DNA of 63,687 nucleotides, counting the filler, from Rhabdomonas costata (taxonomy: Eukaryota): assembly GCA_019059605.1 (NCBI GenBank). It is 51 parts of 51 records of this genome, joined end to end, with 100 filler letters (N's around TTAATTAATTAA, not from the genome) between each part and the next. Parts side by side here need not be neighbours in the genome. Positions count along the whole stretch, not along the records: positions 8,757 to 9,907 come from JAHMHO010026102.1; positions 10,008 to 11,158 come from JAHMHO010026103.1; positions 11,259 to 12,409 come from JAHMHO010026104.1; positions 12,510 to 13,660 come from JAHMHO010026105.1; positions 13,761 to 14,907 come from JAHMHO010026106.1; positions 15,008 to 16,158 come from JAHMHO010026107.1; positions 16,259 to 17,409 come from JAHMHO010026108.1; positions 17,510 to 18,660 come from JAHMHO010026109.1; 43 more parts are not named here. One strand, 5' to 3'. Within the stretch, counting starts at the first letter, position 1, and each line of letters starts with the position of its first letter. The notes under the pieces were generated by a model that saw only the letters and a list, made by a program, of their open reading frames with translations, did no database searches and was not told where the DNA came from. The translations under genes and the position numbers were made by a program. Positions 9,171-59,763 of this stretch are shown here, piece by piece.

Positions 9171-9558
9171 GTTGTTTTGGGAGCAAAAGATGGACCTCAC
9201 GCTGGTGGGACTGCAAGGAGCAGGCACCTTTTCCCTTCATCGTTCATCATTTTTCTCTTTCCCCTGAACTAATGTGTTATTTATGCCTTTGCTGGTCCCA
9301 GGAAAGACTACACTGCTTCGGACACTCACGGACGGTGGAAAGAGGCCCCAGGCAGACACCATTCCTACGGTCGGTTTAAACACCTCTCAAGTCACCAAAG
9401 GTTAGTCCCGTTCGGAACTCTTTCCTCTTTACTCCTAGGATCCATCACTGATGTCAGTGTGACGAAAATTTTCCCAGCGCTCTGCTTGCTGCCTTCTGAC
9501 TTTCAGGTGGTGTTTCTATCAAGCTGTGGGATTTGGGTGGCCAGCCCAAGTTCCGAAC
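9171..9558 (+). CDS. ARL8: ARL8-like Arf-family small GTPase, partial (exons 9171-9223, 9302-9400, 9507-9558)
   Basis: Spliced peptide [23 protein letters not shown]...DTIPTVGLN...KG|GVSIKLWDLGGQPKFR contains the P-loop, IPTVG switch I and WDxGGQ; intron 1 is GC-AG, intron 2 is GT-AG. Confidence 0.88.
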
Positions 9559-11283
9559 GTGTGTGACTTGTTGATTTAGCTCTGTGCCCCAAAAGTGAAA
9601 AATAATTGGCCCCGGGCGAAAAAAAAAGGTGATACCGAACTTATATCTCGGAACCTGCACCTGCTGCAGTTGCTTCAAGGCCAGTCCTCTCTGGTGGAGC
9701 CCTTCTTATGCTCTTTCCAGCTTACTGCCTTGCCCCTCAGCTCTCTGAGGAAATGCCCCCCTGGTTCACACACATCCTGCATTCCAATGAAAAAACTCCT
9801 ACTTCCAACTTTCCAACTTTCAAAGATTTTCCTCTACTAGCAGTCCTCTACTCAGTGCAACCCGACGGTCCTATTTCGCCCCAAGGAAGACGGGAATCCA
9901 AAAAAACNNNNNNNNNNNNNNNNNNNNNNNNNNNNNNNNNNNNNNNNNNNNTTAATTAATTAANNNNNNNNNNNNNNNNNNNNNNNNNNNNNNNNNNNNN
10001 NNNNNNNGTTGGGGTGGCCTGGGATTTGGTAAGAGGCATTGGTACAGCCAGCGCAAATGCTATTTAGCGTCTCCACCAAAACTTGCGAGAAATGTCGGGG
10101 AGGGGGGTTTGTGGGCAGGGTTGCTGGTCTTATCCTGAGCAACTGATCCCGAAACGTGGTATCCCGTGGACGTGGACGTCATGTCTGCTACCTTCAAGAG
10201 CCATCAAGTACCAAAGGGGTGCACGCAAAACTTTCCAATGGTGGTGAGCTAGATATTATGCCTTATGTTCACGTTCTGGAGTGTTATCAAGTAAACCCTT
10301 CAGGTTCAAAACCTTTCTAAAGCCAAACGTTTCCTCTTGGCTGTGATGGCAAAGGACTTCCCCTTTGAAGGATTGGTCCAGGAGTTGGACAGGTCTGGTT
10401 TTAGAGGTGAAGGCATAGGCGCCAATACTGCCACAGCGCGCGGCTGCTTGAGAGATCTGAGGGACGTTTCGGCACTGCCCCGGGCGACCGGGGAAAACCA
10501 CCGGTGCCTATTTCACAGACATTGTAAGCAGTGGTTACCGCTGGTAAGCCATCGACCGCACACTTCGCCGCAAGGGCATGCGCGAACAAGTTCCTTTCCC
10601 AAAACCAAAGGCGTGCCGGCAAAGAGAAACGAACCATTCACCGCTGAACAAAGCGCGAAAAAAGATGCCCAGTTGGGTGCTTGGATACCAACCCGTAAGG
10701 CACGCTGGCAAACCCTCACACGTGGCGTTGACACAAAAAAAAACACGAGTGCCGCAAAGAGAAAAATGGGCGGTAGCACGGGAGATTCATTCAGGAAAAT
10801 CCAGGGAAGCGGATAGGACCCCCGCCTCGTTTACTGGACTTCCGTCACCCTTTCTCGGTCACCTTCCCATTTTCGGCCAGCCAAACGCAATCACACATTC
10901 CCAAGGTGAGTGAAAAGATGAGGGACACATTGAGAATGCCGCGTTGTCGTAGGCTACGTGTTGAAGCAGAGAATCAGGAAGTAAGAAAATACTAAAAACT
11001 CTGAAAACCCTCCAGCAGGATCAAAAGGGTGTGCATCAGAAGTTAGCGAAGGCAACGTAAGCTGATCCCCCTCCCCACCTTCCTCTGTTCTACGCTCGTC
11101 CTCTCACCGTCACCCATTCTTCTGCTTCTGCCTCCACTGAGGGAAGGCTGGGCACAGGNNNNNNNNNNNNNNNNNNNNNNNNNNNNNNNNNNNNNNNNNN
11201 NNTTAATTAATTAANNNNNNNNNNNNNNNNNNNNNNNNNNNNNNNNNNNNNNNNNNNNGGGGGGGGGGGCAACAAATGAACAG

Positions 11284-12164
11284 GAGCGTCCTGACTCTGC
11301 TGTACGGGGTGTTGGCCCTGCTGTGGGGGATGGGGTCTGCCTTGCAGAAGGTCCTGGTGGGGCCCCTGCAGCGGCGGGAGCGCAGCCAGCTCCTCAACGC
11401 CGTCCTGCACGTCTGGCTGAAGAACGTGCGTCTGTCTGTGGGAGTGTACGTATGTGTATAAGGAGAAACACGAGAAGCACGAAAAAGTCAGGCTAAATGT
11501 ACAAAGTGCACGTGTCTGTGTGTTTGTATGTGTGTGTGTTGCCTTGATGGTGTTGCATCCCTGCCGGTATGGTGCCCTGTAATTTGATGCCGCTTACGCC
11601 TGTTAATGAACTGCCGGAGCCGCGCTGCGGCACCGGCACGTATGTTGGAACCACAGTTAGCTCTTAGTTGTCTCGGAAATCTGCCACTGTGATGCTGCTT
11701 CCGACATGGTTGACGGTTGACGATGCTGGTTGACGATGGTGGTGCCAGTTCAGCCAATTCATAACACTCGGACTTCCACCTGCCCAGAACAGCAAATGTG
11801 GTGCGATTGAGAAAGTTTCAACACTCACTCCCCCACCTCCCACTCATCCCTCCCCTCGCCATCTCTCCAATGAAGGAAATGTTGGCGAAGTTGAAAAGTT
11901 CGTCGGGCTCGGATAGGTCGCAAGGGGGAAGATAGAGGTTCACCCAGCGCCAGGTTTGTTTTGTTCGTATTTCAGAGATGTTTTTTTGCGGGGTAATTTT
12001 GGGGGAGGGGGATTGTGGGTGCAGCTGCTGTTCATCCTGTTTGTTCTGGTGCCGCAAAGCTTGCACGAGTTTTCCTTTTGGCTGGTGTGGGCCTCCGCGG
12101 TGGCCCTCCTGAGGGGTCTGGGCGAGCTGTGCTCGATTCTCATCAAGCGGGTCTCTCTCCCTGA
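11284..12164 (+). CDS. gp78/AMFR/RIN2-like ERAD E3 ligase, transmembrane region (exons 11284-11425, 12025-~12164)
   Basis: LQKVLVGPLQRRERSQLLNAVLHVWLKN|LLFILFVLVPQSLHEFSFWLVW resembles the Hrd1/gp78 'FGxLRxxE' membrane segment; phase-0 GT-AG intron. Confidence 0.6.
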
Positions 12165-13543: not shown

Positions 13544-13934
13544 CTGAGCAAAGATACCGGCCACACACACACACACACACACACGACGGCTGCCCCCATG
13601 TGTTCCGGCCAAAAAAGCACACGGACAGAATCGTTCGGTTTCAAAGCCTGACCAACCACANNNNNNNNNNNNNNNNNNNNNNNNNNNNNNNNNNNNNNNN
13701 NNNNTTAATTAATTAANNNNNNNNNNNNNNNNNNNNNNNNNNNNNNNNNNNNNNNNNNNNGGGGGGGTGGGAACCTGCAACAAATGCTGTCTGCAGCACT
13801 GCTGCCGCACTCCTTCGTGTCTTGGGGGAGTGAAAAGGGCTTTCTGATGAACAGGATGGCTTCAACCACAGTCAAATTGTCCCACTATTGGTTTTTTGCT
13901 TTCGGACAGCAGATCAGAGGGGGCGGGCTCGTGC

Positions 13935-14842
13935 CTTGCAGTCGCGGAAGGGCAGCGGCGCAAACTTAGCGTCGTGAAGGCGGTAGTCCCCAGGCACGAT
14001 GTCGTTGAGGCACTGGTGGATGATCCGCGCGGAGTTGCGCATCTCCTGGATGCGGATGAGGTACCGGTCGAAGGTATCCCCTGCGGTGAGGAGACCGCAC
14101 GTCGTTGTGGTGGAGAGAAGGGGGGCAAAAAGAGAAAGAGGGGGTAAGTGCAAGTGGCGCGTAGTTTCAAAAGTGAAAAATTCGCTCGCCCATCAAAAAA
14201 CTCCACGATTTCGGACGCATAAAGCGAAAAAAAAAAAAACGGTCTAAAAACCGCTTTTTCGCTTCCTAATAGCTGAAAAGGGAGCCCCGTGTTCTCACTT
14301 TTGACGCCTGACGCGGAGCATATTTCGTTGGCCAACGGTTGCATCAGGGGATGAATGTGAAGGGGCGCACTTTTTTAGAACGGCAAGTTCTCCTGGACCA
14401 GTAGCGGAAATTGATTAAAGGACTACGGCTCCACAAAAAAGTTGCTTGTTATAACAAGTGACCTGATGTGACGTGGAACAGCCCTTCTTCTTCCACCGAC
14501 ACCACTGCCCCTGCACCACACACCGTTGGTCCCATAGGGCACTTCCACATCGAGGTAGGGGTACACCTCGTACGGCGCGGTGACGCGCAAATCCCATGCC
14601 ACTCCACAGGCCCGCAGCATGGGTCCGGAGAACCCATAGCTGAGGGCCTGGTCATGGTTGACATAGCCCACGGTCAGACGCTGGCGGATGATGTTGTTGC
14701 CCGTCAGCAGGTCCTCAATCTCGTCCATTCGGGCAGCAAACTGGTTCAGCCACTCCCATAGCTGGTCCAGCATGGGGTAGGGCAGGTCAGAGGCCACCCC
14801 ACCAGGGCGAATAAAGTTGGGGTGCATCCGACTACCGCAGAT
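13935..14842 (-). CDS. NDUFS2: Complex I 49 kDa subunit (nad7/NDUFS2), nuclear, partial (exons 14842-14524, 14080-13935)
   Basis: GSRMHPNFIRPGGVASDLP, GFSGPMLRACGVAWDLR..PY, G|DTFDRYLIRIQEMRNS are NuoD/Nad7 motifs; GT-AG intron 14523-14081; next donor AAG|gcacga. Confidence 0.96.
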
Positions 14843-16313
14843 CTGTCGAGCCAAACAATAAACAGCGAAATGTCTCAAATGGAAAACCACAATATCCACA
14901 AACAATGNNNNNNNNNNNNNNNNNNNNNNNNNNNNNNNNNNNNNNNNNNNNTTAATTAATTAANNNNNNNNNNNNNNNNNNNNNNNNNNNNNNNNNNNNN
15001 NNNNNNNGCTTTTTATGTGTCCCATCCTCGTCGTCATAGAATCTGTTGTTTTCTGCCAGCCCAGTATTCCTTTCATTCACTGCGAGAGCTGTCAACACTC
15101 CCCCCCCCCCGTAAATCGCCGATACAAAAGGAATACTGGGCTGGCAGAAAACAACAGATTCTATGACGACGAGGATGGGACACATAAAAAGCCCAACTCA
15201 ACCCAAAGTAAAGCACGGGTACGCAGAGACACAAAGACACAGGCACGCACAAACAATAGTCCTGTTCTTAGTGTGAGGCTCGCAGTTTCTTCTTTTTTGT
15301 GTTTTATTTTCTGCCGCCACGGTGCTCTTGTGCTTTGTGCCGCTTTGGACGCGGGACAATTGCTGCCCTCCCTTGACAAAATTAGGCACGTAGGATCGAA
15401 TACGTCCATGCTGAGATGCGCACAAATCAAAACTCCGTCGTGACCAAAACTCAGGCCAAGTCTTGAGCTTCTGAATGCCGCTCAAGGTTTCTCCCACTTG
15501 GGCCGGAACCAAATGCGTGGGAGCTCCAGGACGCTGCACAGCCAAACCAAACAATGACAATCACCGCTTTAAGCCTTAAGCTCTCCCGTGCAACTCAAGG
15601 GCAGGATGACACTTGGAGTTCGGCAAGCACCAAGGGGGAAAGGGGGACGAAACACCGGCTGGAAAAGAATGGTCAGCTTGCTGGGAGCCTCGCCATCGGG
15701 GGAGTGATGGTCTGAGGCGTAAGCGGAGCACGACGAGGCCGTCGAGAACTCGCTGCTTGCTGGTGAGGGCGGAGAGAAAGAGCACATCTGTTCCGCGGAG
15801 TTCCCCATCATCCCCTTTAGAGTAACGGTGCCACCGTTAGGGTGTCATGGTTTTTAACCACCAATCCATATGAGCAATGAATCCAAGACCATATGAGCAA
15901 CCATAGGGTCTTTTGTATCAACAGCAGACCTCGCGAAAAGCTGTGTTCACAAAAAAAAAAGGTGAAAAGAGCTGTCTTTTGTTCTTGTGAGGGAGGGGCC
16001 TTCATGAAAGAATCAAGACGGAGCGTTCTGCCACTGTTTTGGAATATGTTGCTATAACCATCACAGCGAGCAAGACGGCACTGCGGCAGCAGGGGTTGTT
16101 AACAAAGTGCCGGGAGTTTCAGCAGTTATACCCCTCAAATGGAAACCACCCAACCCCCNNNNNNNNNNNNNNNNNNNNNNNNNNNNNNNNNNNNNNNNNN
16201 NNTTAATTAATTAANNNNNNNNNNNNNNNNNNNNNNNNNNNNNNNNNNNNNNNNNNNNTGTTTGTGGTAATACGTACTCTGTGTGTGCATGTAGGAATGT
16301 GCTGTGCTTGTAG

Positions 16314-22207: not shown

Positions 22208-23816
22208 CTACGAAAGACAAAGGCAGCGGAAGGATCCTAACCCAATCTTGGTTTCACTTGCTGCAAATAACTGACAAATCCAACACGAGTAACGTGAAAT
22301 CGTTGACGTCGATCAATCAACTCACATGGATGCGAATAAATACAGATTAGCTTAGAAGACACTCTCCTTGGAATGTGGGCAAAAAAAAGGGCAGAAAGGG
22401 TAGTTCATTTCANNNNNNNNNNNNNNNNNNNNNNNNNNNNNNNNNNNNNNNNNNNNTTAATTAATTAANNNNNNNNNNNNNNNNNNNNNNNNNNNNNNNN
22501 NNNNNNNNNNNNGTGGGGGGGTGGAAACCGGGGCAACCTACTAATGCGTTTCTGCTTCCAACGTCTTAACCCGAAGGCGCAACTGCTCACTTTCCTTTAT
22601 TGATTTAGCTTTAGCAACATTGCGGGGCCCGGAACCCCGATTGGGCCCCAAACCTCCCACGGTTTTTTTACCGTTCTGTTCACGATGCCTTTGCTTCCTT
22701 TGGGTCAAAATATCATCGATTATTTTTGGGCCTCTATGCTTCCCCCTTCGTTCTTCCTTACATGGGAATACGCCCATGGGTTCGGGCGCTTTGCCCTCAT
22801 ATTTCTTGGGGGTGGGTGGGTGCTACCACTGCCTGATGCCATCACATCAAGGCCCAAATCAGCCTTTACTTAGGCCCGGTGATACTATACAGACTACCTA
22901 AACTAGGTTCAACGTGGGCTTGCGCGTCTACTACTCAGATACATTAGCGTGTGGGTCACCCAGGGACCCAAATGCACCCTACCGTGGTGAGTGGTGGCCT
23001 CATCCTGCGTGCGTTGCCAAGGGTGCCTGATGGACCAGTTGAGTCCAGCGCCTTCAATTATCTTCGGAATGTTCTAAGCATGTTGCTGGTACTGGGGCCT
23101 GAACTGCTGTCTGTGATCTCGAATGGCACTTGAGAGCGTGGCGTTGCCATGACATAAGAGACACGAAACAATGGAAACACAACCAAACACGAACAGAGAT
23201 ACACGCACCTGTCGCCCACTCCACACCTTAACGCCATACGGACAGCATACCAAGGAATGGTATGTCCTACCGGTACACCAGCAGCCGTCTTCACCACCAC
23301 CGGCGTAACCACCATGATATCAGCCAGCACGGGACCATGAGCACAAGACATGAACCACAAGCGGTTACAACCCACACCGTTATATTCCAACCAACATGAC
23401 CACACCAAAATGATGACAGCACAAACACTTCCACCATACCCAGAGGTCCACAACAATCGTAATTCCACCACCAGAGCCCGTACAAGCAGAAGCCCAACCA
23501 TGGGAGTGAGCACACAACATGAGCAACGATCGATCGATCGCAATGTACACCGTTACCCCACAGCCTACTTCCCACTCTACCATCTACCCACACGACCACC
23601 GAAGACTTGGATGCCCACTGGAGCGTGCAAAGCCGGATATCAAGGAACCTTACCACAAGCACCNNNNNNNNNNNNNNNNNNNNNNNNNNNNNNNNNNNNN
23701 NNNNNNNTTAATTAATTAANNNNNNNNNNNNNNNNNNNNNNNNNNNNNNNNNNNNNNNNNNNNGGTTGTTGGGACATAGGCAGCACACAGGCATTGCTCG
23801 GCATCTCTTCTCTTCT

Positions 23817-24892
23817 CTGGCCCGGCTGTACCTCGTCAATGACCTGCTGCACAACTGCACCTGTTCAGCGGTACCGAGCGGCCAGAGAAGAGAAGAGATG
23901 CCGAGCAATGCCTGTGTGCTGCCTATGTCCGAACAAGCAGGCGCAATCTCTAACAGTGGGGCGAGGCCACCATGAAATTTTCTCCGCTCTCTCCTCCGTT
24001 CTTGGAGATGCACTATGTAATGAGAAGGTTCGCTTCTTTGACTTAAGGATAGGTGTGTTTGATTGTCCGCTTTTGTATGTACTTGTGCGATGAAAAGACG
24101 GAAAAGGAAACACTCGCACACATAGACGAGAAAAAACTGATCTCTCATTCGAACGCGCGCCAACCTGGCGTTCACCGAAGCCAGGGGCCTGAGTAGGGCG
24201 ATGGAAACAGAGACCCTCCCCTCACCACTGCACAGGCTAAAGGTGCTTCGATGTTCCGGTGGTACCTGGAGTCAAAGCTGCCCGCGATCTTCCAGTCCTG
24301 CCACCAAACCCTCCGCTCGCAAGGCGTGGCCTTTTTTTTTTCGCGCAGTTCAAGTTCAGCAGCAATCGGCGATGGAGGGTGCTGGGCTTATTGCTCACAT
24401 TGGAGTATTCCGTTCAGTGTGAGAATGAACCAGGTTCGATTTCATTCTGGCGACGACATGTGATGTTCCCGGGCTCAGGCGTTTTGGATGATACGTGAAT
24501 AGGATCTGCGCTTCAGATTGACATTTGATGGGGAAGGAGGAGATAGTTCCTCCCTCCAAGCAAGGTCTCGTGGAGGTACTGATGTGGCTGTGCTTCGCAC
24601 GCTTGGGGTCAAAAATTCATGATAGGGAGCAACCAACTGCATGCATATTTTCATGTGGGTGCGTTCTCTGGTAGTTTACGACTATTTTGAAACATGTGCC
24701 CTGCCAATAGCACCAACTTATCGTGGTATATTGTTCTGCTTCTGCATTTGTTCTTCTGGCTTGGGACCAGGGCGGCTCTCGGGGCAGCGCTTCCAGGAGC
24801 AAGTCCTGGCCGTGGTGAGCGTTTGGCTAGGGTGGTCGGTGTACTCCCCAGACTTCCTGTCTGGGCTGAGGCGGACGCTGCTGCACGGCTAA
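23817..24892 (+). CDS. U2SURP: U2 snRNP-associated SURP protein (SR140) CID domain, 3' end (exons ~23817-23870, 24236-24323, 24771-24892)
   Basis: LARLYLVNDLLHN...ASMFRWYLESKLPAIF...G|RLSGQRFQEQVLAVVSVWLGWSVYSPDFLSGLRRTLL matches the SR140 CID pattern; second intron is GC-AG. Confidence 0.82.
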
Positions 24893-25430: not shown

Positions 25431-26610
25431 GATTACAAAACTGGATACAACGGGAGCTCACAACAACAATATCCAAAAGTCTATTGAACCGAGCAGCCAA
25501 GACCAGATTGAAAGGAAAAAGTGGACGCAGCGATGCCCTCCCCCCAAGGGTTAAGTGTACGAGTGTTGTGCCTAGAAGACGGTCCTACACGTACCTGTCC
25601 CATGCGGCAAATATCATGCTCACGGTCCAAAAGAAAAGGGACAAACGTGCAGGGGGAGGGAGGGAGGGAGAGAATGACGGAGGCTGCAAACCTGAAGCAC
25701 CTCTCCGACTTGGGCACATCTGGAGATGGTGCCCCGGATGGAGGGGGCGTTGAATGGAGTGAAGGTGGCAGTGTAGTCCACGGGGGGTGCATCGGCAAGC
25801 AAAAGCATGGGCTGCCCTCCAGGATCCCCGGAAGAACTGAGCAATCCCACCAAAGTGAAGAATGACGTCTCAGCGAGAGAAAAAGAGTCACAGCTGGAAC
25901 AGCCATGAGTTATCCTCTTGCATACGCAACACCCTCTCTCGCAGCGTCTCACAATGGCAGGGCGACCACACCTTTGTTTCGGTGCATCGTGCCATTAATT
26001 CCCCACCCTCCCGTGTGACGATAACTTACGCGTAATTCTTACAGATTCATGTATTCAGTCTTTTTCGGTCCACGGGATTGCAGCATGGCTTAAGCAACGG
26101 CCGCTGGCCTCCGCCCCTAAAATACTCCTGTTCTTCCTAAGTTCCCCCAAATAATAATAACCAACNNNNNNNNNNNNNNNNNNNNNNNNNNNNNNNNNNN
26201 NNNNNNNNNTTAATTAATTAANNNNNNNNNNNNNNNNNNNNNNNNNNNNNNNNNNNNNNNNNNNNGGTTGTGGTGGTTGTTGTGAAAATTAGGGACTGGC
26301 GTGGAATGGTTAGAAACAGGAAAGGGTGTGAGAACCAGGGTGGCAGAACGGAGAAGAGGAAAGAAAGAAAGAAAGAAAGAAAGAAGAAAGAAGTGCAGTG
26401 AAATTGTGGGGTAGGGTGGGCGCGACGTGAACACTGAGGATACGCGTCAAAAACATTAAGACCTGTGCTGGAGACCACTGAAAAACACTTCTGTGCTTTC
26501 GCCGCCGCTCTCGCAAATCGGAATGCTGCCGGAGCTGACAGCTGACGTTACAAAAATGCAAAAATGCAGCGCTGGATGAAGCGCCAAAGGAGTGTGGGGC
26601 GCCGACAGGC

Positions 26611-27183
26611 CTCAGGGGTCAGCTTATGCACAATGACGTCGGGCTTAGCGCTGATGGCCTGGTCGGCGGCAGGGATGCTCTTGTTCTGCTTGAAGTCGAA
26701 GTCCCCGATTGCCCGGGACAGCGCCAAGTTGCCGTTGACCCGGCCACTGCTGACGAAGGAGCCTGCCTGCTGGATCCGCTTCAGCTCGGTCTCGTTGTTG
26801 GGCTTGTGGTCCTGGCAGGAAAGCCCCACTTCCACTCATTACCCACACGTCACTGATATGAAAGTGCTGCCCTACCACACCCGACCACTACGAGTATGTT
26901 CAGCACTGGCCGCTTGTGCTGGTCCCCGGGCACCTGCTGATAAATTTGGTACAGCGGTGACTTGCATTCTCTCCCTTTGCCTCTGTACAGCACGCGATTA
27001 CGACAACGCTGCAGTGGGGAAGCAGTGCCTGGGAAAGGGGAACCGGCTTGCCGTCACGGCATAGCACACAACGGGAGTCGCCAGCGTTGCCGCAATAAAT
27101 CTCCGTGTCCGTGACGAGCACCACCACTGCGGTGCAGCCTGAGCCGTCGTTGTGGAGCATGGGATCGCGAAGGAGGTCCTCGT
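26611..27183 (-). CDS. Protein phosphatase 2C, partial (exons 27183-27029, 26811-26611)
   Basis: SGCTA, NAGDSRCVL, LSQ|DHKP, RVNGNLALSRAIGDFDFK motifs; intervening intron is GC-AG. Confidence 0.96.
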
Positions 27184-28974
27184 CTGTAACGGGTGGCACA
27201 AAAAGGTTTCCACGACACGTGTGCTGCAAACAGCCGCAGCGATCGACAAATACATTTGAGAAATGAGTCGCAGCGTGGTCGCATGAGTTGCATTCATGGT
27301 CAAAAAGAGGGGAAGTACACACGTAAATCCTTTTTCACCAACGCGTCGAAGCACAGCAAAGAAACAAACCCTGCTGGGGCTGTGCGGGGACTCGGTCACG
27401 CTCTTCCCCACCAAAANNNNNNNNNNNNNNNNNNNNNNNNNNNNNNNNNNNNNNNNNNNNTTAATTAATTAANNNNNNNNNNNNNNNNNNNNNNNNNNNN
27501 NNNNNNNNNNNNNNNNGTGGGTGGGTGGTGCAGCATAATGGGCTGCCCGTGGGTGCGATGGGGAAGGTGCCGAAATATCAGCAGAGCAAGGGTGCACACC
27601 AGTAGAATCAGGTTCATGTTTGCCCCGGGGGTCTCACCCCAAAACGCAATTCTCCCCATGGGACACATCCGCGCGAGGCTGACGCGGGGGGTTGGGAGGA
27701 AAAAACTGTCGATTTATAGCGAACCCAGAAGCAGAGCAAAACGCGCATCAACTAACGAGGCACAAAAGCCAGCAGCGGACGGCAGCGCAACGGCCAATGG
27801 GTCTGTGAGGTATGCTCCAGGTACAATACCCTCAACGATTTTTTCGTGTTTAAGTTCGATCACTCCACCCGCGGAGGCCATGACGCCGCGAGAAGCAGCA
27901 GAAGCGTAGCTCGATACGGGCAACTTCAAAATGGAAGTGGGCTCCGGTAAGGGTTTAGGGAAAGTTTGGCACGGGACACGGAGGTGCGTGAGGGCGACTT
28001 GAGCAACCTACATCACGTGAGAGCCGCGAGAGGTTGGAAGACGAGTCTGACGAGTGAAGGAAGACATCCTCACAGAAGGACACGTCACAACTCAACCTTT
28101 GATGAGCCCCCCCCCCCGAAAAGAACCATGGGGAGTTCTGCAAACGACGAGACCGACGACAACAAAAACATAGGCCTGGCTAAATTGCTAGGTGCTCACA
28201 TCACTTCTGAAGATATCTTGGGAAAACTTGCGAAACAATTGCAGGTCTTAACCAGCACAAATCCAAATGCAAGGCGGGAGCAAGGAAGCAAGGAGACACC
28301 AAGGCGGGATATTTTCCTGTGAAAGAAAGATGGAGAGCAGAGTAGAAATGCACACATAGAAAACCGAACTAACCAATAACCCGAATAATTCAGGAGAACT
28401 TTAAAAAGGGGTTTCTGATGGACAAAAGTGGGAAGGGAGACCATACGGTGGCGACAGAGGGGGAGGAGGAGCAAGCTCATAACAGCCGGCTATGTGTGTT
28501 GACAGCAATGGCAGCGAACGAGCATCACGGGAAATGGAAGGTGCAGAATGTGCTAACGGGGTCCGGTTATGGGTCGGCTTCACTAGGGGAGGAGGAGGAC
28601 GGGAGAGGGGGCAAGGGAGGTGCTTGCCCCCTCTCCCGTCCTCCTCCTCCCCTAGTGAACCACAACANNNNNNNNNNNNNNNNNNNNNNNNNNNNNNNNN
28701 NNNNNNNNNNNTTAATTAATTAANNNNNNNNNNNNNNNNNNNNNNNNNNNNNNNNNNNNNNNNNNNNGCAAGTCGGTTGGGTTGTTTGGCGAATTAAGAC
28801 ATGTTGAGGTGCGAAGGTGGTTAAGTCCCATTTGGAGGAGTTTGAGAAGCGATATAGAGGGTTCGACGTAGTGGGAGGTTGCGGCCGTGAGTCGTCGTCA
28901 AGAGTGCCGGCTGCGAGGAATGGTTGCGGCCAGGCTCCACCCGGACTTTGGGGAAATCGCGGCCAACCAGGTGG

Positions 28975-35262: not shown

Positions 35263-36172
35263 GTGGACTGCCCCAAGGGCAAGCGCAAGGGCGATGAGAA
35301 GGCCCCGGAGAATGTGAAGGGCAAGGGTATGTGTAAGGAGAAGGGCAAAGTCAAGGGCAAGGGCAAGGGCAAGGGCACCCTGCAGCTGCTGGACCACGTC
35401 AGCGGGTACGCCAAGCCCGGGGTGGTGACGGCGCTGATGGGGGGCAGCGGCGCGGGTAAGACCACCCTGTTGGACGTGCTGGCCGGGCGGAAGACCACAG
35501 GGAAGATTACCGGGGACATCCTCCTGAACGGTCGGCCCACGGATAAGGTCACCTTTGGGCAGATCGCGGGCTACGTCGAACAGGTGTGGTGCCAGAGCCA
35601 TTGTGTTTGCATCGTGCCTTTCTCTTTGCCAGTTGTCGTGCGGATAGCACGCATACGGGTTCCTCGTTACCATGCTTCTCTCTCCTTTCTCCTTGAGCCT
35701 CGCATCACGTGTGGTGCGGTTGCTGTATCCCTTTTCCCCTTTAAATTTGTTCGCCGGCATGGGCCGAAATGTTCCAATTCCGTTGCAACCCAGAATTCTT
35801 TGCACAGTCCGAGTCACCTGAACCGAGCACGTCTAAAAAAAGAGTGCGCTTTCTGACCACCGGTTGTAATTTCCGAAAGCGCACTCTTTTAGCCAAACGG
35901 AATTACAGCCGGTATCGGTTGGGAAATGTTGCGCTGGAGTTCTCACAGAGAGCGGCTGTGCGGGGATTTTCAACTGCACACTCGGGCGGCATGCTTTGTG
36001 TGATCTGTTCTTTGCGGTTATACCGTTACCTCACACTGACGCGGGCCCACATCCAGCACTAGAATGTAGTAACTGTAGCTCGCCATGTCTTTGGCGCGTG
36101 CGCGCACTGTCTTGTTCGTCTCCCTCCTCTCCCGATTTCTTTCACACAGAATGACATTCACACCACCCACAC
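35263..36172 (+). CDS. PDR/ABCG transporter, second nucleotide-binding domain, partial (exons 35263-35583, 36150-)
   Basis: [41 protein letters not shown]...GYVEQ|NDIH; GT-AG intron 35584-36149. Confidence 0.95.
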
Positions 36173-43200: not shown

Positions 43201-46200
43201 CCCATCCCCTGTGGAAGTGATAGGAAGCCAAGAATTAAACAGACAATCCTGTTTGTCTTCCCCAAATTGCCCAGTTTTCCCAGTTTTCCCAAATAGCCGA
43301 TGAGGTATTCCTCGAGCAGCTAGGAGACAGGAAACATATTCTTGTGGGGTGACGTGGAACAGCCAATGGGTGAATTCTTGCACAAACACCTCACAAGCAA
43401 AAGTACACCAGCCGAGAAGTAAAAATATAGAGAGGAAGAAATACACGGCACTTCTGCAGCACATGGGTCAGCACTGTAATTTCGAAGGTAAAAGTGTTAG
43501 ATACAAACAAAATCTTAAAATAAAAAACGACCAGAGTCCTTTTCACACCTGGAACCCTATCAACCAAAAAGAACAAGCAGACTGCGCACCCAGGCAGGTG
43601 TAGTTGATGCGGTGCTCGCAGCCGACATTCCCCACCAGCACAGCGTCCGTATTGATCCCAATGCGCATTCTGCANNNNNNNNNNNNNNNNNNNNNNNNNN
43701 NNNNNNNNNNNNNNNNNNTTAATTAATTAANNNNNNNNNNNNNNNNNNNNNNNNNNNNNNNNNNNNNNNNNNNNGTGGTGGGTGTGTTTGGGGTGTTGTT
43801 TTTACGTGTGGCCTGCCAGGCTGGATGTCTCTTTTCTTTCTCTCTTTTCTTCCTCTTCTTCATTGCATGGTCGTGGGCCTCTCTTTTGCCACCTTTGCGC
43901 CCCTCTTTTGTGGTTTGCTTTGCGCAGTACAGTTCCCCCCCCCCCCTTTTTTTTGGCTAATCCCCTTCCTCGTTCGTCCCTGCTCCACGGCTTTATCCAC
44001 CATTCTGCCTTTTGTGGGACGAGGGAAGGGTGAGCGACATGTACGTGCAGTGCGTATCTCTGTCTCTCCATTTACTAGGATGTGCACCCGCACACGCACC
44101 GATGAGGTGTCGGTGTAGAATGCCTTTCTTGCTCTTGTTGGCCCAAGGATTTCCGCGTTGTTTTTCTTCTCCATGTCGAACTCTGCTTACTCCCTTCGGC
44201 CTGCCTTGTACGTCTAGTGATTTTCTCTCCAGTCCTTTGCGATCACATGCAGTGAATCTTGCAGAAGCGTGCACGGTTCTCTGGTCAATGGGGGGGCGTC
44301 AAACGGTATAACTCCGTTCTGCCGTATAACGCCGTTATACGGTCGGTGCCGGCCACCCGATTCGGTTGCTGATTGTGTTGGGTGCTGGTTCAGACCAAGG
44401 CAAGCCAATTGTGAAATTGCAAGATTGAAATGGCTAAAAAGAAGAATGAAAAACTGAAAAAAAAAATCACACGACGGAGGGCTAAGCCGAAGCTGGCGTG
44501 GGATCTTGTGTACTTCCATTAGGCCTCCTGAAACGTTGTCTGGCCGGTCCTTGGGGTCAGGGGTTTCCTGGCCATTCTTCCTGGGCCGGTTGCGGTTCCC
44601 ATTGACAGCTCTTGTGCGCCGCTTCGTGCCTCACGCAGTGCAGCGGAGAGTTTAACTCAATGTATATGCAAAAAACCCCAACCACTAGTCAGGGAAATGG
44701 CTCACGGTCCTCGTCAGCAGAGCCATTCTGTTAACCTGTCTCGCCGTGTCTCCTGGTTGCGTAGAAATGAGCATTAGATTAGGGGGGAGAATCTGTGGGG
44801 AGGTTCCGCCTCCCTCCCTCTCTGCCGCTTCGGTTGCATATGGTGGTCTTGTTGGTCGAGGCAAATGCCTTCAACGGACGGTGTTTTTAACTTCAATCGA
44901 AATAGGTGCAGGGGGGGGGGGAATGNNNNNNNNNNNNNNNNNNNNNNNNNNNNNNNNNNNNNNNNNNNNTTAATTAATTAANNNNNNNNNNNNNNNNNNN
45001 NNNNNNNNNNNNNNNNNNNNNNNNNTTTTGTACTGAAGCGCTGTGTTTCTTTGAACCCTTACTCTCTCTCTGTCTTTGTAGCATTGAGTTGTGCCATTAC
45101 TGTTCTCTTGTCAACGGTTGTGTCCCTTTTGCTCCTCGAAGGGATTTCCTGGTTGCCACGGATGTCATGTTGTGTTTTAGGCCTGCTGATGGGCGCCGCC
45201 TTTGGGTGGCTGTTGTATATGGGGTGCCGGATTTTGGTGGTCGATGCAGCCCTTTCCACGCGCACACATGCACACACACGGTCTCAGTCTGTTGCTCCCT
45301 GCTCGGCTCTCATTTGAGCTTTCTTTGACGGTATGTGCGCTGTGTGCGGATGAGTTCCTAGGCTCATGGAGCGGGGTTACATTGTGGGGAGTGGTCTCGC
45401 GCTGACGTGACACCACGCACCGCACCACCGCATATTGGTTTTTCGTTCCTCAAGAATTAATGCAACTGGTGCAGAAGCGCAAAAACGCTTGGCTGGTCGA
45501 TGCGACACAACCACACAGCAAACACAGCAAGCAAACCAAACGCCCCTTGGCGTGCTGGGTTGGAGCGGTTGGAGCGAGAGACCGGACGACCGGGAAAAAA
45601 ACGACGCGACTGCATCTTTTCGGCTTGCGTATATATCTTCCACCCATTGCATGCCGTGGCAGATCCCCCCCCGACCCCGTTTCCTGCACGTTCTTTGCGT
45701 GCAGCTTTCACTGCATCACCTGCCCTTCTTTTTTTCTGCTTGCTCACCCTCTCCCATCGTTCTCCATCAGAATTCCACACCGAGCCTTTTTATCCATCCT
45801 CTATCTCTTCTGTTTTGTTCTACTGTCAGTTTCTCTCTCCCTGTCTCGATACGGTGATTACATCAGTACAGTCCGCTTCCTTCTGTACTGGCACGGCGTA
45901 GCATAGTGCACCTGCACCGCTAGCAGCTTTCGGTTGCACTCTGGGTACATCATCCTTCACTGTGCTGTTGTCACCGAGTGGAAGCTCTCCTTCTTCCCCG
46001 CTCTGAGCTCAGAATCCCCAATGGCAGTAGTTTTACTGACGTTGAACTGATTGCTGTTCTGCCCCGTTCCTGCACTCTGCGCCTAAGGTTAACGGGGCAG
46101 AACAGCAATCAGTTCAACGTCAGTAAAACTACTGCCATTGGGGATTCTGAGCTCAGCGATTCGGACACAACCCCCCNNNNNNNNNNNNNNNNNNNNNNNN

Positions 46201-51677: not shown

Positions 51678-52265
51678 ATGGCGGAGGGTTATGCCAAGTT
51701 TGCAAACAAGGAATACAGGGCAGCATCCAACCTGGTAATACAGCAGACAGATGTTCCCAGGACGAGGCTGAATGAGCCCACGAGTGAGCCTCAAAGTTTG
51801 GCTAAAATGGTGACCACCATGAAGATGGGCGATCGATACCAAAAAACAAAGCCTGAAATTAAGAAAAAGTCCTCCTTTCCGCAATGTGTTTCTCATGTGC
51901 AATCATGGTTGCTTATTATATGGGTTTATCCTCTTTTTTCCTTTTTCCTTTTTAGGCGAAAGCTCCAGCCTGAATACGAATCTGCCGCCAAGAAGCTCAA
52001 AAAGGGTCGCCCTGGGGCACTTCCTCTGGTGAGCTACGGAGTTTACAAACCAAAACCAAAGGAAACAAAGGAGGTGCGTGTGTGTCTGTGTGCGGGCGCA
52101 AAAAACCAACAGGTGTGCAGAACAAGCAGCCTCCTCACCTCCTTTTTTCAGGTTTACACAGAGCTCCTCAACTTTGTTCAAGGTCAGCTCGGTGACGTTG
52201 ACCATGAAACCCTGGTGAATGCTGCAGACGATGTTCTGGAGGCTCTGAAGGACGAAAAAATAAAG
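51678..52265 (+). CDS. BRR2: U5 snRNP helicase Brr2 N-terminus (exons 51678-51868, 51956-52073, 52152-52265)
   Basis: EYRAASNLV, EPTSEPQSL, MGDR, YKPKPKETKE|VYTELL, LGD...AADDVLEALK match the SNRNP200 N-terminus; three GT donors. Confidence 0.92.
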
Positions 52266-52985
52266 GTGCCTTGGTGCCTTCAAAATTTGTTGCTCTGGGC
52301 GTTGCGCTGGAAGCGTGCCGATATCGCGCAAGTAAGAAGGGAGAGAGGTGTGCGATGTTTCGCGGCAACGCGAACATCCCCACAACCCGCAGAGAGCAAG
52401 AAAAGGTTCAGCGCGGGATGCGGCTTCTCTGNNNNNNNNNNNNNNNNNNNNNNNNNNNNNNNNNNNNNNNNNNNNTTAATTAATTAANNNNNNNNNNNNN
52501 NNNNNNNNNNNNNNNNNNNNNNNNNNNNNNNGGTTTTGGTGACTCCGTTTTACGAATGTTTCATCATACTTCTGAAGTGTGTGATTGTTTTGGAGTTGCA
52601 ACTCTTGTGCCTTTCCCAACCAAAAACAAGGCAAGCAAGAAGGAGCGGCACCAAAGCACACCACAGGGGAAAGCGAGGTTCAGCTCTCAAACTTTTTAGC
52701 TTTGACTCGCTTCCATTTTGCTTAGCCTGACTCAGATTAGCTTTTTCGCTTTAGGGGTCTCTATCCTAATCTCTTGAAATAGGAGTTGTTAATTACCGAG
52801 TTGTTATCATTTTAATACGTTATCTGATAATTGTAAAAGTCCTCCAATAGCTGGGTATTCAACTTGCCGATACTAGATGGACAAAAACTCAACAAACTCA
52901 AATGCACGTGCGCATCAAGGATTGCTTTTATCCCGGTGAGCCTTTATCTTCACATTCTCTTCTATAATCTTTCTAGATTGGGTTT

Positions 52986-54139: not shown

Positions 54140-54658
54140 TCACATCGAACGCATCCAACCATTTTGGGCGGGCGCTGCCCCACCCATCTGGGCGGTAGGA
54201 TGTCCCATGTTTCTTCTGCTTGGCAGGGAAAGCACAGCGCCCGGCGTCGCGTGGGACCGCGATCCTCCCCGGCCCGAGGCACGCCGCTGGTAGGGATTGA
54301 CTCGGGGTGGGGGGCGGTGGGACTCCCCCGGTACGGGAGCCGGGCAGCAGTACTCTTCTGGGACAGAGCACTCTTCCATGGGTTCCGACGACTCTTCGGG
54401 TGGGGGCTGCAGCTGAACGGCTTGTTGCACCCCCAAAAGAGCCTCGCCGTCGGGTAGGGCCATGCCCTCGAATGCCCGGGTGGCCGCCGCGGCGTGGGCG
54501 GGGCTGACAAACCTCACCAGGCCCACCCCCAAGCCCAGGTGGCCCGACCAGATCGACGACGCCAGGGTGGGGCCAAACGGGCGCACCAGGGCGTCCAGGT
54601 TGGCCTTGGTGTAGTGCCGAGGGAGGTTGAGGATGAAGATCAGCGCGGGATCCGCCAT
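54140..54658 (-). CDS. RRM-domain RNA-binding protein (3' end uncertain)
   Basis: RNP2-like IFILNLP, 'PFG', RNP1-like GVGLVRF, AAAATRAFEG helix. Confidence 0.75.
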   Translation of the reverse strand: MADPALIFILNLPRHYTKANLDALVRPFGPTLASSIWSGHLGLGVGLVRFVSPAHAAAATRAFEGMALPDGEALLGVQQAVQLQPPPEESSEPMEECSVPEEYCCPAPVPGESHRPPPRVNPYQRRASGRGGSRSHATPGAVLSLPSRRNMGHPTAQMGGAAPAQNGWMRSM

Positions 54659-55177
54659 TTTCGCCTCAGTGCTGATGGGTCGCTCAACGGAAGCAAAATA
54701 TGAGCAGTTCGGGGCAATATGTGTGCACGAAGAAACACGGGGGCAAAGGTGGCGGAAAACCCGGAGAAGAACAAGCTAAACCAAAAAAGATGGCGCAACG
54801 CGTCCTGTAATCTCTTTTTTCGCATCGTCGGACCACACAAGCTCCATCGCCGGAAACGGAATCGGGTGCATCGGCGCCTGGATGGAGCCTCAATCGCTTT
54901 CTCCGTGCGTAACAACAACACCATCGGCCGCTGNNNNNNNNNNNNNNNNNNNNNNNNNNNNNNNNNNNNNNNNNNNNTTAATTAATTAANNNNNNNNNNN
55001 NNNNNNNNNNNNNNNNNNNNNNNNNNNNNNNNNGGTGTTTGTTTGTCGCTCTGCATGCAGATAGTATGTGTTTGCCTTTGAGTACAGTTCTGGGCAATCT
55101 GGGGGACCTTGCGGCTGTAGTGCGTGGCGTCACAACTTCGCATTGTGAGTAAGTGAGGTGTGGTGTGGGTGGCGCAG

Positions 55178-55911
55178 GCGGGCTGGCGGCCTTCCACACC
55201 CCCTACCGCCTGAAGCACCTCCCCACGGGGGCCTACCTCGCTGTGGAGAGGGACGCCACGGACATCCTGTGGTTCCTGCTCTCGCCGGACCCCGAGCAGG
55301 TGCGGCAAAGCCTCCTCACTCCTGCTTTCGAATAACAGCATGTCAGCAGAGAACTGACATTCAATCCAAAGCGTGGGGGATGCGGATGTGTGTGTGTGTG
55401 TGTGGTATGCTGAAGAGACCGAAGGGTGGAAACACCGCAGCCAGCCCGTCGCGTTATTGACGTAGTTTTTGGTAGATAAGCGCACCCTCCCCTTTTTCTG
55501 CGCAGGCATGAGGTTGGTGTTCCAGATCTGCATCAGATCTGGCACGTCACCGCCCGCGTGAAATCCGTGCCGGAACGAACGCACGCGGCGCTCGCAGCTT
55601 TTAACGTGCCTCGGGTTTTCTGACGCACAAACGCATTGCTTATGATGTTAGACCCCAGTTTTATGTGTTTGTGTGCATGCGTGCATTTCTTGAGCACAGC
55701 GTACCGTGCTGCCATTTCTCTTATTCGGTCGAGTTGCTTTCCTCAGCCTTTGTGTGTTTGTGTGTCTATGCAGCCCGCTACGGTGTTTGTGCTGCACCCG
55801 TTGGACCTGGAGGCGCCTCCTGGGACCGTGCCAGAGCCCCCGCTGCTGGCACGGATCCAGCACCGTGCCACGGGGCTGTTCCTACACATCGCAGCGGACG
55901 AAGACTGCAGG
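55178..55911 (+). CDS. MIR-domain exons of an IP3/ryanodine receptor-like channel (55178-55299, 55774-55911)
   Basis: YRLKHLPTGAYLAV and RIQHRATGLFLH MIR motifs; phase-0 GT-AG intron. Confidence 0.72.
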
Positions 55912-56367
55912 GTTTGCCTCAACCTGTGCTGCTCCTTCTCTCCCCTCCTTCTGCGGACCAGTGTTCGTCGGAAGGAGCAGAATTTTCACCCGACGTCTCA
56001 AAGGATTGGGACCAATCTTCAGTGGTGGAGAGAAAACACGGTGACGATTGCTCCTCCTATATAAAGTCGTACAGACTCGTGGCATGACAAACGGCGCACG
56101 AATCAGACTGAATTGGACTCCTTTTCACACCCTTCAGCTCTTACCGCACCCCACATACCGTACACGCACAAGCCGCTGCCTATTNNNNNNNNNNNNNNNN
56201 NNNNNNNNNNNNNNNNNNNNNNNNNNNNTTAATTAATTAANNNNNNNNNNNNNNNNNNNNNNNNNNNNNNNNNNNNNNNNNNNNGGGGTTTGGGGACGCT
56301 CTAGTTTGCTTGTATGTTGAGCCTACCTGAATTCTCCCTTACCTTCTCCCATTTCTAAAAACAGCAC

Positions 56368-57245
56368 CCGCAGCTGCTTCTTGCGCTTCTCGCACCATTC
56401 CGTGTATGCCGCCTTGCGCTCGCCCACAGTCTTCAGCGCCTTGTACCTGTTTTTAGAAATGGGAGAAGGTAAGGGAGAATTCAGGTAGGCTCAACATACA
56501 AGCAAACTAGAGCGTCCCCAAACGGCGAAAGTGAAGCAGAGCCACCAAGAGTTATAGACTCCGATGCCTCGCAGGATGGAAACGTTCTCGAACAAGCCCC
56601 AAATCATGCGAATACAGGTGGGCATCCGGAAACATTCTGTAGCGGGCGAATGAAGACCTGCACAGCAATCGGCAGTTTAATGCTCAATCGGCTTAATTCC
56701 GAAACGTTGGCAGAACCAGGTCGGGGCGGGGTAACCGAAGCTGTCAAAAAGTTGCGAAAGCAATAAAAACGATGCTCTTTCTCCAAACCTCTCATCGTTG
56801 ATGATTTGTTTCATCGCCTCCTCCCACTTCAACTCGGGGTCCAGCTTCTGTAAAAAAAAAAACAGCCATCATAGAAACACCCAAAAGCATCATTATTGCA
56901 TTGATCCTCATTGAAGAATGGCGTGGTGGTTTTGGGCCACTTCGCCATTACTGTGCGAGCCTAAGGCCGTTCTGACATACATCTGTAATATCTGGTCACC
57001 TCCCGTGATTGTGATTGACTCTGCAACTGCTGCTCCACGATATGGCAATGGCAGGGACAGGCACACAGCGGAAGAGAAAGGAAAGGAAAGGGAGGGTAGT
57101 GGGTGAGGGAGTGAGAGAACACGGGCCTTGACATCCAGGAGGTCCTTGAAGGCTGCAAAGCGCTCCTTCTTCGAGTTGTAGATCACCAGAGACTGCTGCG
57201 CGTTGGTAGTCTTCGCCGCAGGCAGCTCCACGATCTCCGTCGGGC
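56368..57245 (-). CDS. PRP40: PRP40-like U1 snRNP protein, first FF domain (exons 57245-57127, 56847-56789, 56446-~56368)
   Basis: YNSKKERFAAFKDLLDVK|KLDPELKWEEAMKQIINDER|YKALKTVGERKAAY matches Prp40 FF1. Confidence 0.85.
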
Positions 57246-57914
57246 CTGCACCACAGATCAGTGAGAAAAGAAATCCCTCAACCGTATTTTGAATGCTTCG
57301 CGGTCGTTGTGTTATTGTTCACAATGATAATAATAAAAGCTTGGTGCCACTGCACTCCAAGTTCACAGCTGTGAACTTGGAGTGCAGTGGCACCAAGCTT
57401 TTATTATTATCATTGTGAACAATAACACACCAACNNNNNNNNNNNNNNNNNNNNNNNNNNNNNNNNNNNNNNNNNNNNTTAATTAATTAANNNNNNNNNN
57501 NNNNNNNNNNNNNNNNNNNNNNNNNNNNNNNNNNTTGTTGGATGTGTTTGGGGTGGTGGGTCCTACCCAATATGCGGGTGGTGCTCCAGTCCAGCGGGCA
57601 GAGCTGTGAGGCAGCCGTGAAGAGGCGGCGCACTGAAGAGCTGCCGCTTTAATGCCTTCAGGCCGTGGACTTGAGCACCATTAGGTGACGAGGCGGGTGG
57701 GGAACGGGGTGACCTTATTTTGTATATTTCTGGTGTGTGGACCCGGACAGAAACCGACTGCGCCTGTTGCTGTTAAGTGCACGTTTTGTTTCGCTGAAGA
57801 AGTCCCCCTTTGCTTTCTTTACTTAGGAAAGCAATCGCACCCTTCAGAAAGCACAGAGAAGGGTATGAGAGTAGAGTGTAAAAGTGAAAAGAAAAGAAAA
57901 GAAAAAGCAAGTAC

Positions 57915-58127
57915 CTTAACAAACCGCATCTTCAAAATCATGAGGGCCTCCCTGTAAGTCAGGGCGTACTTCAGCCGGTTGCGAATGATGAGAATGAGAG
58001 GGAGAGACTCTCGAAGCTTGTGGGGCCCGGCACGGGGGCGGGGAGCGAAGATCCCCCCCAGCTTACCGAGCATCCAGTGGTGCGGGGCATTCAGCCGTTT
58101 AAGGTGCAACTTGGGGCCACGCCCCAT
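57915..58127 (-). CDS. RPS4: 40S ribosomal protein S4e, first exon
   Basis: [20 protein letters not shown]...[11 protein letters not shown]...[11 protein letters not shown]|gtactt donor. Confidence 0.97.
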
Positions 58128-58438
58128 TGTGGTTCACAGATGTGAAAAACAAGTGAGCTGTTGCACCAGAGACTTCACAAGAGCACACCAACACCAGGAG
58201 AAAACGTGGAATGCAACTGAAGGGTTCTGTTCCACCACAAGTTCTACAGGGCAGCCAAGAGGTTGATTAAATTGGCTGGGAGCACCACCATCCCCTCTGG
58301 CTCAACCCGTACAAGGTTCAAAACAGCGCAAACGACTATGTTTGCCCCCCGGGACCGTCACGGCGAGACGTCAAGACTGCCCTGTACGCAAGCTCTTGTG
58401 CAGCAGTGAAGCATTTTTCAGCCCTCCTCGTATGCGGA

Positions 58439-58512
58439 TGTAGGTATTAGGTATTAGGTATTACTAACCCTGCCCAGAACATACGTATTAGGTATTATTA
58501 ACACTGCCCAGT
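58439..58512 (+). repeat. Short (TAGGTAT)n repeat within a ~38-nt duplicated unit upstream of RPS4
   Basis: taggtat x3, then gtattaggtatta..aac.ctgcccag twice. Confidence 0.7.
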
Positions 58513-59763
58513 ACAAATATTCCCATGCTTGCACCAAGTGAACCCCCAAGAGCACTCAGCCAACCGGCTCAAAAGTGGTGGTGGTGACACCTGTCAACTT
58601 TTGTCCAGAGAAAAACCCTTGCAAACGAAGAAGAAAACCAACTCTTCCAGGGCGCTTTCAGCACGGTGCCGTATTCATTGACGTCNNNNNNNNNNNNNNN
58701 NNNNNNNNNNNNNNNNNNNNNNNNNNNNNTTAATTAATTAANNNNNNNNNNNNNNNNNNNNNNNNNNNNNNNNNNNNNNNNNNNNGTTGGGTGGGAAAAC
58801 GAACGCAAAGGCGATGGTCTGGAAAATTCTAAGAGAAGAATCAGATCAGCTCTTGTAGCGGTGTGGGAAATGATGTCATAGGGATTACAGGGGAAAACGT
58901 TGCACAAAGTCGAATCCCCTACTCGCCATTTTAGTGGTTGTCAACAGGGCTAACCGCTTTCATGCCCCCCCCCCCTTCTTTACGCCATGCCGGACGACCA
59001 CACGAACCCGTGCGACAAGTGATTGAAGAATTGCCTATTTCCGCGTCCTGAGGGTACATCTCGAGTGTGGGAACCAAAGAACCAAACGAATCATTAAAAA
59101 CCCAGCGACCTCACCGCATTAACTCGCATAACACCAAAATCGAAATGTTTCGAAAAATTCAAATCTTCCGCGAATCGGTGGAAAAGTCTGCTATTGTCTG
59201 TTTTCCTGAATGGCGGAACCCCAACCTCCCCACGCAGACCCTGTCAGAAGACGTGCTCGCCCTCTCCCTATAATTTTGAATGAGTGAATCCTAAATCTAG
59301 AATTGAAGGATTCTTTGTGAAGCGACCTTGTGCACCCACGCAGAAACTCCACATCTGGACATCTGGGCGAGCGCACTCATGTGAGAGGGCGTGAGGATTT
59401 GGTTGTGTAAAGTGTGTATGTGTGTGTGTGTGGGGGTCGTGCCTTGAGGGTACTGTTGATGTTGAAGGGGAGCAGCGGGTCCACCTTGTGGGTGCGGAAA
59501 AGTCCGAGAATGCCTCCCCTCAGCGCTGCAAAGAGGAACGCTACCAAGAGGACCAAACCACTTTGTGCACTTAGCAAGTGTGAAACTCCTTTGAGAAATG
59601 TTGGAGCTGCCACCCACTCCGGAATGGGCCGATCTGTGCCTCGCCTTGTTGCCGACTCGACCCCTTGTTGTGCTGAGCTGAGCTGTGCCGTTTTATCTAT
59701 CACCACGCAATGGAATAACCGCACCCTCGCGGTATAAACGCGGGACCTTGGGAGACCATACTT

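Follow-up and report, generated by a model that had tools for sequence, protein, structure and literature searches.

GC-AG introns account for about 1% of the introns of model eukaryotes. In euglenids the border of the conventional intron is described as GT/C-AG, and in Euglena gracilis there are 659 GC-AG against 11,527 GT-AG introns, or 5.4% of the conventional class; only G at +5 is prominent in the GC-AG class, while the GT class reads GTGTG and pairs with U1 (PMC11170887). Diplonema papillatum has "a few" GC-AG introns. Genome papers on Symbiodinium are said to report that non-GT donors are common, that both GC and GA are used, and that the 3′ AG is followed by a G. Among 241 manually mapped junctions of the haptophyte Emiliania huxleyi, 56% are GC-AG, with 9 verified by reverse transcription-polymerase chain reaction (PMC4028052). 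The GC-AG introns of animals, plants and fungi are described as substrates of the major spliceosome whose donor context is strengthened elsewhere (PMC2490688). Here we examine 5′ splice sites in a 63,687-base stretch of DNA (the window) from the euglenid Rhabdomonas costata. The results support GC as a routine donor in the genes sampled, as an initial annotation of the window had proposed, and GC donors are probably commoner there than in E. gracilis: 4/16 to 6/18 of the donors against 5.4%, which would be a four- to sixfold difference if it held genome-wide (PMC11170887).

The window consists of 51 unlinked contigs of 1,146-1,153 bp each, with TTAATTAATTAA/N linkers between them, and the GC content of the contigs is 37-57%. 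The R. costata draft genome was obtained from Sigma WGA4-amplified DNA and has an N50 of 1,194 bp and 51.6% GC; gene models were not predicted on it, and the proteins of the species are derived from its transcriptome (PMC8219788). These RCo proteins therefore count as transcript evidence. Two minus-strand exons match such proteins with 100% identity: a PP2C exon at 26611-26811 matches eukprot:RCo031304 (P0001), and an NDUFS2 exon at 13935-14078 matches eukprot:RCo027051 (P0121). The next-best matches for both exons are proteins from Euglena and other euglenid transcriptomes, at 79-91%, and the DNA of the window is thus consistent with the published R. costata dataset, coming from this species or a strain nearly identical to it. 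A dinoflagellate or haptophyte source was rejected on the strength of the RCo identities; the nuclear NDUFS2 gene also speaks against a dinoflagellate.

Eight GC donors were considered, and at 8/8 of them an exonic AG directly precedes the GC on the strand originally assigned (Table 1). We grade four of these sites as firm (27028, 26610, 13934 and 9224), two as favoured (24324 and 57126) and two as unanchored (20062 and 59442). Three of the firm sites are placed by transcript-derived proteins. In the PP2C gene, P0001 residues 101-152 correspond exactly to 27184..27029 and residues 152-219 exactly to 26814..26611, and the mRNA across the junction at 27028 reads ...PLSQ/DHKP... (a slash marks the junction here and below), with 27028..26812 removed. 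Past 26610 the same protein continues ...LTPE/DEFLVLACDG, where genomic read-through instead gives ACRRPTLL; because P0001 departs from the read-through at 26610, the donor there is not a GT, and a GT 5 bases downstream is excluded as the donor. The E. gracilis PP2C orthologue aligns gaplessly over both PP2C junctions. The donor at 26610, at first called only possible, is thereby raised to firm.

The NDUFS2 donor at 13934, initially favoured by homology, also becomes firm through P0121, whose residues 181-288 correspond to 14845..14522 and residues 288-336 to 14081..13935, again exactly. At the 13934 junction the protein reads ...PFRDCK/ESMENLIAHFK, and the ESMENLIAHFK portion is absent from the contig. 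No GT is found upstream of the in-frame stop in the read-through after 13934. The NDUFS2 junctions agree with the match to Pfam Complex1_49kDa, which spans positions 25-132 and 130-179 out of 271. Register shifts of 1 base are possible at the PP2C and NDUFS2 sites, and GC(-AG) is the sole near-canonical way of drawing them. The transcripts join exons exactly at AG/GC. GC is used at 3/4 of the donors tested by transcript-derived proteins, and these donors were picked by gene, not by donor type.

The fourth firm site is the donor of ARL8 intron 1. The frame of exon 1 matches ARL8A (PDB 4ile_A) residues 15-35 through ...LTLVGLQGAG, ending at G34; the first residue of exon 2 is K35 (GKTT...), and this exon extends to VTKG, residue 65 of 4ile_A. 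Pairing of every GT or GC donor with every frame-keeping AG acceptor leaves 2 solutions only, GC at 9224 or GT at 9242. The GT donor was rejected: it yields GAGTFSLHRKTTLL, in which the Walker A motif (GxxxxGKT) is destroyed. Anchored by the PDB alignment and Walker A, the predicted junction at 9224 is counted as firm, and the description of ARL8 9224 and PP2C 27028 as forced stands.

Table 1. Introns, donors and examples of fold-back repeats in the window; open reading frame is abbreviated ORF, nucleotides nt.
Feature	Coordinates	Strand	Borders	Basis or remark	Grade
ARL8 intron 1, GC-AG, 78 nt	9224..9301	+	gagcag/GCACCT...ggtcccag/GA		firm
ARL8 intron 2, GT-AG (control)	9401..9506	+		exon 2 match to 4ile_A stops at VTKG65	
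NDUFS2 intron, GC donor 13934	13761..13934	-	tgcaag/GCACGA	3′ end off contig	firm
NDUFS2 intron, GT-AG (control)	14081..14523	-	ccaacg/GTGTGTGG...ccgcag/GG	P0121 mapping	
PP2C intron, GC-AG, 217 nt	26812..27028	-	tcccag/GCACTG...cctgccag/GAC	P0001 mapping	firm
PP2C following intron, GC donor 26610	26266..26610	-	cctgag/GCCTGT	3′ end off contig	firm
U2SURP candidate GC-AG intron, 447 nt	24324..24770	+	cgcaag/GCGTGG...gggaccag/GG		favoured
PRP40 FF-domain intron	56848..57126	-	GC-AG (gtcaag/GCCCGT), or GT-AG from 57120		favoured
PRP40 intron, GT-AG (control)	56447..56788	-		IINDER/YKAL aligned to PRPF40A IINDPRY	
BRR2 intron, GT-AG, 78 nt (control)	52074..52151	+		gapless alignment to human BRR2 101-149 over junction	
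Possible GC donor	20062	-		after unassigned ORF downstream of cyclase exon; context only, no homology or transcript anchor	unanchored
Possible GC donor	59442	-	ctcaag/GCACGA	after GC3-rich unassigned exon; no anchor	unanchored
Anchored GT donors	ARL8 9401, 9559; NDUFS2 14523; U2SURP 23871; cyclase 20662				
Anchored GT donors	SCO1 33193; PRP40 56788; RPS4 57914; ABCG 35584				
Anchored GT donors	BRR2 52074, 52266; MIR-domain gene 55300				
Fold-back repeats (examples)	8412-8656, 15008-15192, 23772-23930, 56288-56523, 57308-57429				

The U2SURP donor at 24324 is favoured. Exon 3 has its best PDB counterpart in human U2SURP 639-674, although the match is weak (E=0.6), and the alignment begins at the glycine that would be made by G/GG of the proposed junction. 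The GC content of third codon positions (GC3) is 0.76-0.87 in the U2SURP exons versus 0.45 in the read-through beyond 24323, and a PDB search with the exon 2 read-through gave no U2SURP match. Exon 1 gives a weak match to the CID domain (E=0.18). This donor too had been called forced, a description that does not hold: as there is no stop in the open frame after 24323, GT donors at 24348, 24354, 24405 and 24417 used with the same acceptor also keep the frame, adding 8-31 residues.

The PRP40 donor at 57126 likewise stays favoured, as initially graded. Exon B matches the PRPF40A FF1 domain (2lks_A, E=0.0012), with its initial residue opposite PRPF40A R19 (FF Pfam position 14), right after ...FKELLKEK18, and exon A ends ...FKDLLDVK. 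The GC donor would thus give a gapless FF1 fit, while the GT donor at 57120 (gcccgt/GTTCTC) inserts 2 residues; a PDB search with exon A returned nothing usable. A further PRP40 donor, GAAG/GTAAGG at about 56345, was dropped. It lies in a fold-back, with 56288-56364 as one arm and its reverse complement at 56447-56523, so that exon C sits in the loop and the sequence following it is a copy of the preceding intron with a false GT donor. Of the two unanchored sites, 59442 has the sequence caag/GCACGA in common with the NDUFS2 donor.

Twelve GT donors were anchored in the window, 5/12 on transcript or printed alignments (14523, 56788, 52074, 9401 and 9559). A Pfam search of 20 more ORFs, chosen by codon bias or GC3, found only SCO1, ABC, RRM and MIR domains and no further multi-exon genes, and the denominator was therefore not enlarged. 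The GC share is 4/16 donors when firm sites alone are counted and 6/18 with the favoured sites, or 25-33% (Clopper-Pearson interval 7-59%). This agrees with the share first estimated, 5-7 of about 26 donors, while the denominator itself shrinks to 16-18. Were the true rate 1%, at least 4/16 would arise with probability 1.7e-5 and at least 6/18 with probability 1.7e-8; at 5.4% these probabilities become 0.009 and 2.6e-4.

The donor hexamers of the six firm and favoured sites are GCACCT, GCACGA, GCGTGG, GCACTG, GCCTGT and GCCCGT. Exonic AG precedes 6/6 of these donors versus 7/12 GT donors (Fisher P=0.11), and G at +5 is found in 4/6 GC donors and 8/12 GT donors. The GT donors read GTGTG, GTGCG, GTACN and similar (GTGYG-like) sequences rather than GTAAGT. 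The initial annotation was right that the intron side of the GC donors lacks AAGT; however, since the GT donors lack it as well, its absence is a property of the lineage and not of the GC class, and the claim that compensation is missing cannot be maintained. The GC donors are compensated in the ordinary way, by exonic AG and usually G at +5. The sequence AG/GCAC occurs at 3/4 firm GC donors (9224, 13934 and 27028) and at the unanchored 59442. AG/GCAC may be the preferred GC-donor context, the sample being small. None of the six donors resembles the minor-class (U12-type) 5′ motif.

Euglenids also possess nonconventional and intermediate introns, whose removal depends on structure and is possibly independent of the spliceosome, and junction repeats would let such introns be drawn as GC-AG. 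The resemblance is real in several respects. The hsp90 gene of Euglena agilis contains nonconventional introns that start with GC, and one bounded by GC and AG, and an E. gracilis tubA intron with CAG direct repeats can be placed in four ways, one of them GC-AG; the two kinds of intron occur in the same organisms and have junction repeats in common (PMC3935182, PMC4770533, PMC11170887). The repeats CAGG...CAGG in ARL8 and CCAGG...CCAGG in PP2C permit shifts of 1-3 nt. The same sources set nonconventional introns apart by terminal pairing (CCAGG/CCTG or CAG/CTG) and variable borders, neither of which characterizes the GC introns here. Two motif pairs have been published, CCAGG at +3..+7 with CCTG at -9..-6 for E. 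gracilis and CAG at +4..+6 with CTG at -8..-6, and no complete GC intron of the window contains either pair in any allowed register; ARL8 shifted by 2 nt has merely CA at +4,+5 and TG at -7,-6. In the published test of terminal pairing (RNAfold of 10 nt + U7 + 10 nt), applied to 3-4 GC introns and 5 GT-AG controls, the GC introns score -0.8, 0.0 and -5.1 kcal/mol, the last being U2SURP, whose ends can pair, and PRP40 scores 0.0. The GT controls score -2.3, -9.1, -0.2, -5.8 and -2.0 kcal/mol, so the termini of the GC introns pair no more strongly than those of the controls; most E. gracilis nonconventional introns lie at -10 to -2 kcal/mol. The complete GC introns (9224-9301, 27028-26812 and 24324-24770, with 57126-56848 if its GC is used) all end in AG. 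Their pyrimidine fraction at -22..-3 is 0.50-0.75 versus 0.50-0.80 in the 5 GT controls, and all follow exonic AG. All sites can be drawn as GC-AG, which sets them apart from introns whose borders fit neither GT-AG nor GC-AG; the nonconventional introns judged likely in the R. costata paper number just about seven (PMC8219788). With AG ends, pyrimidine-rich 3′ ends and neither motifs nor an excess of pairing, the 3-4 introns tested behave as conventional, and a nonconventional origin of these sites appears improbable.

We therefore regard it as likely that these are ordinary spliceosomal (U2-type) GC-AG introns, far commoner than in model eukaryotes and probably than in E. gracilis. Several points weigh against this reading. 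The introns at 13934 and 26610 lack their 3′ end on the contig, so AG is assumed there; 7/12 GT donors depend on the analyst's reading of conserved motifs; and in a small sample of 16-18 donors the GC sites were verified with more effort than the GT sites. When the cyclase, U2SURP and PRP40 exons were stacked into one query, with self-scores of 67-86 bits in a local simulation, no RCo U2SURP, PRP40 or cyclase protein was found (0/1507 candidates at E<=0.001, 117-2000 aa), and a search of the representative library gave 2 weak matches of 39 and 36 bits made of many short matched stretches. The three genes thus lack a transcript protein, or theirs is short or does not represent a cluster, and their junctions are accordingly placed by homology. 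Finally, the R. costata paper reports 29/29 complete introns as GT/AG in six housekeeping genes (PMC8219788), a count of 0/29 GC that differs from the present sample with Fisher P=0.012 to 0.0017. The rate is therefore not uniform and the genome-wide share may be lower; plausibly, weak donors are depleted in highly expressed genes. The same paper pools GT(GC)/AG introns as conventional in its genome-wide mapping, and its main text gives no GC share. The published 0/29 also lends itself to an explanation by sampling, in which the true share is about 5% of conventional introns, as in E. gracilis, while the window contains several GC-AG introns by chance and a small hand-curated denominator inflates the observed share. 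The confidence interval is wide, 12 GT donors were anchored where about 20 had been counted initially, GT introns of unrecognised genes would be missed, and the set of sites was picked from many windows for looking unusual. Against this, 4/16 or 6/18 would be rare at a true rate of 5.4% (P=0.009 and P=2.6e-4), the donors checked by transcript-derived proteins belong to genes chosen irrespective of donor type, and the GC donors are spread over 3-5 separate contigs and genes; we consider sampling an unlikely explanation. It is scarcely credible that the C at +2 reflects amplification, sequencing or assembly errors at true GT donors. The contigs do bear amplification artefacts, namely primer-like ends and the 15 terminal fold-back repeats, but such errors would have to strike the same position in 4-6 introns and spare the flanking exons, which are 100% identical to the transcript proteins, and the fold-back arms contain 0 GC donors.

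If these are spliceosomal GC-AG introns, their 5′ splice site would be recognised as at GT donors, by U1 and then U6. The change from U to C at +2 could be tolerated because exon-final AG, G at +1 and usually G at +5 would still pair. Where the GT consensus of the lineage is weak (GTGYG, without AAGT), a T-to-C change at +2 may be cheap, and such changes could build up, chiefly outside the highly expressed genes. A bolder proposal, which we put forward tentatively and hold to be somewhat less probable than not, is that T and C at +2 are near-neutral for the major spliceosome outside the highly expressed genes of R. costata, and possibly of primary osmotrophic euglenids in general, with GC-AG introns at some 15-35% of conventional introns and in a context of their own, AG/GCAC. 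If so, no higher GC-AG share would be known in Discoba, and genome GC content would not account for it; an altered interaction of U1 or U6 with the 5′ splice site, or a step from conventional to nonconventional introns, may lie behind it.

Lineages with elevated GC-AG use have precedents, and R. costata is an added case of this known kind. The GC-AG class of E. gracilis resembles it in belonging to the same phylum, in its GC...AG borders and in having little intron-side consensus beyond the G at +5. The two differ in that nonconventional introns are the majority in Euglena and few in R. costata (PMC11170887). E. huxleyi resembles the R. costata sample in using GC as a routine donor with a canonical AG acceptor, but it is an unrelated haptophyte with a very GC-rich genome, to whose composition the authors tie the GC donors (PMC4028052). 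The contigs here are only 37-57% GC, so base composition is a weaker explanation than in E. huxleyi. The GC-AG introns of animals, plants and fungi are rare, whereas here between one in four and one in three of the donors sampled are GC. Unlike what is reportedly the case in dinoflagellates, no GA donor was seen in the window.

In R. costata, and probably in its relatives, a sizeable fraction of genes would be modelled wrongly by gene-finding or spliced-alignment software that penalises GC donors; among the genes with firm or favoured GC donors, 3/5 encode splicing or signalling factors. The share of GC donors, 0/29 in housekeeping genes with high expression as against about 25-33% in this sample, suggests expression-dependent selection on donor strength. 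With few nonconventional and many GC-AG introns, R. costata offers a useful comparison for the loosening of 5′ splice-site recognition in Euglenozoa, and it also bears on the conversion of conventional into nonconventional introns that PMC4770533 suggests.

A stretch of G and T only opens most contigs and a stretch of C and A only closes them (for example 43775-43794, 57535-57554 and 23764-23773). These ends look like remnants of degenerate whole-genome-amplification primers and not like biology. Fifteen terminal fold-back inverted repeats, with arms of 22-101 nt, are found on 14/51 contigs. These repeats are fold-back chimeras and, together with the G/T-rich and C/A-rich ends, are typical of primer-based whole-genome amplification. 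One such fold-back makes the initial ~50 nt of the U2SURP contig artefactual. A scan of the window found no tRNA genes, and no Rfam family reached its gathering threshold across the window, so no small nuclear RNA (U1, U6 or U5) lies there.

Several other features of the contigs can be described. The N-terminal exons and introns of BRR2 (SNRNP200) occupy 51678-52430 on the plus strand as a single 251-codon frame uninterrupted by any stop, and the 78-nt GT-AG intron at 52074-52151 lies in frame. The borders of the first BRR2 intron (~51870-51955) could not be placed, homology being lost there, and no obvious GT or GC donor is present where homology ends. A possible second cyclase fragment (43096-43467, minus strand), containing …GDGVNLASRLE…, was recognised by eye only and has no Pfam match at E<=0.01. 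(GT)n/(CA)n microsatellites lie within or beside introns at 59765-59800 and 59415-59440 on the minus strand and at 55385-55405 on the plus strand. A lysine/glycine-rich repeat (KGKGKGKG...) at 35262-35380 on the plus strand is found directly upstream of the nucleotide-binding domain of an ABC transporter, in the same frame. An ORF at 54143-54775 on the minus strand, with 211 codons from stop to stop and an internal ATG, encodes an apparently intronless RRM protein (Pfam RRM_1, E=2e-7) with a proline- and glycine-rich tail.

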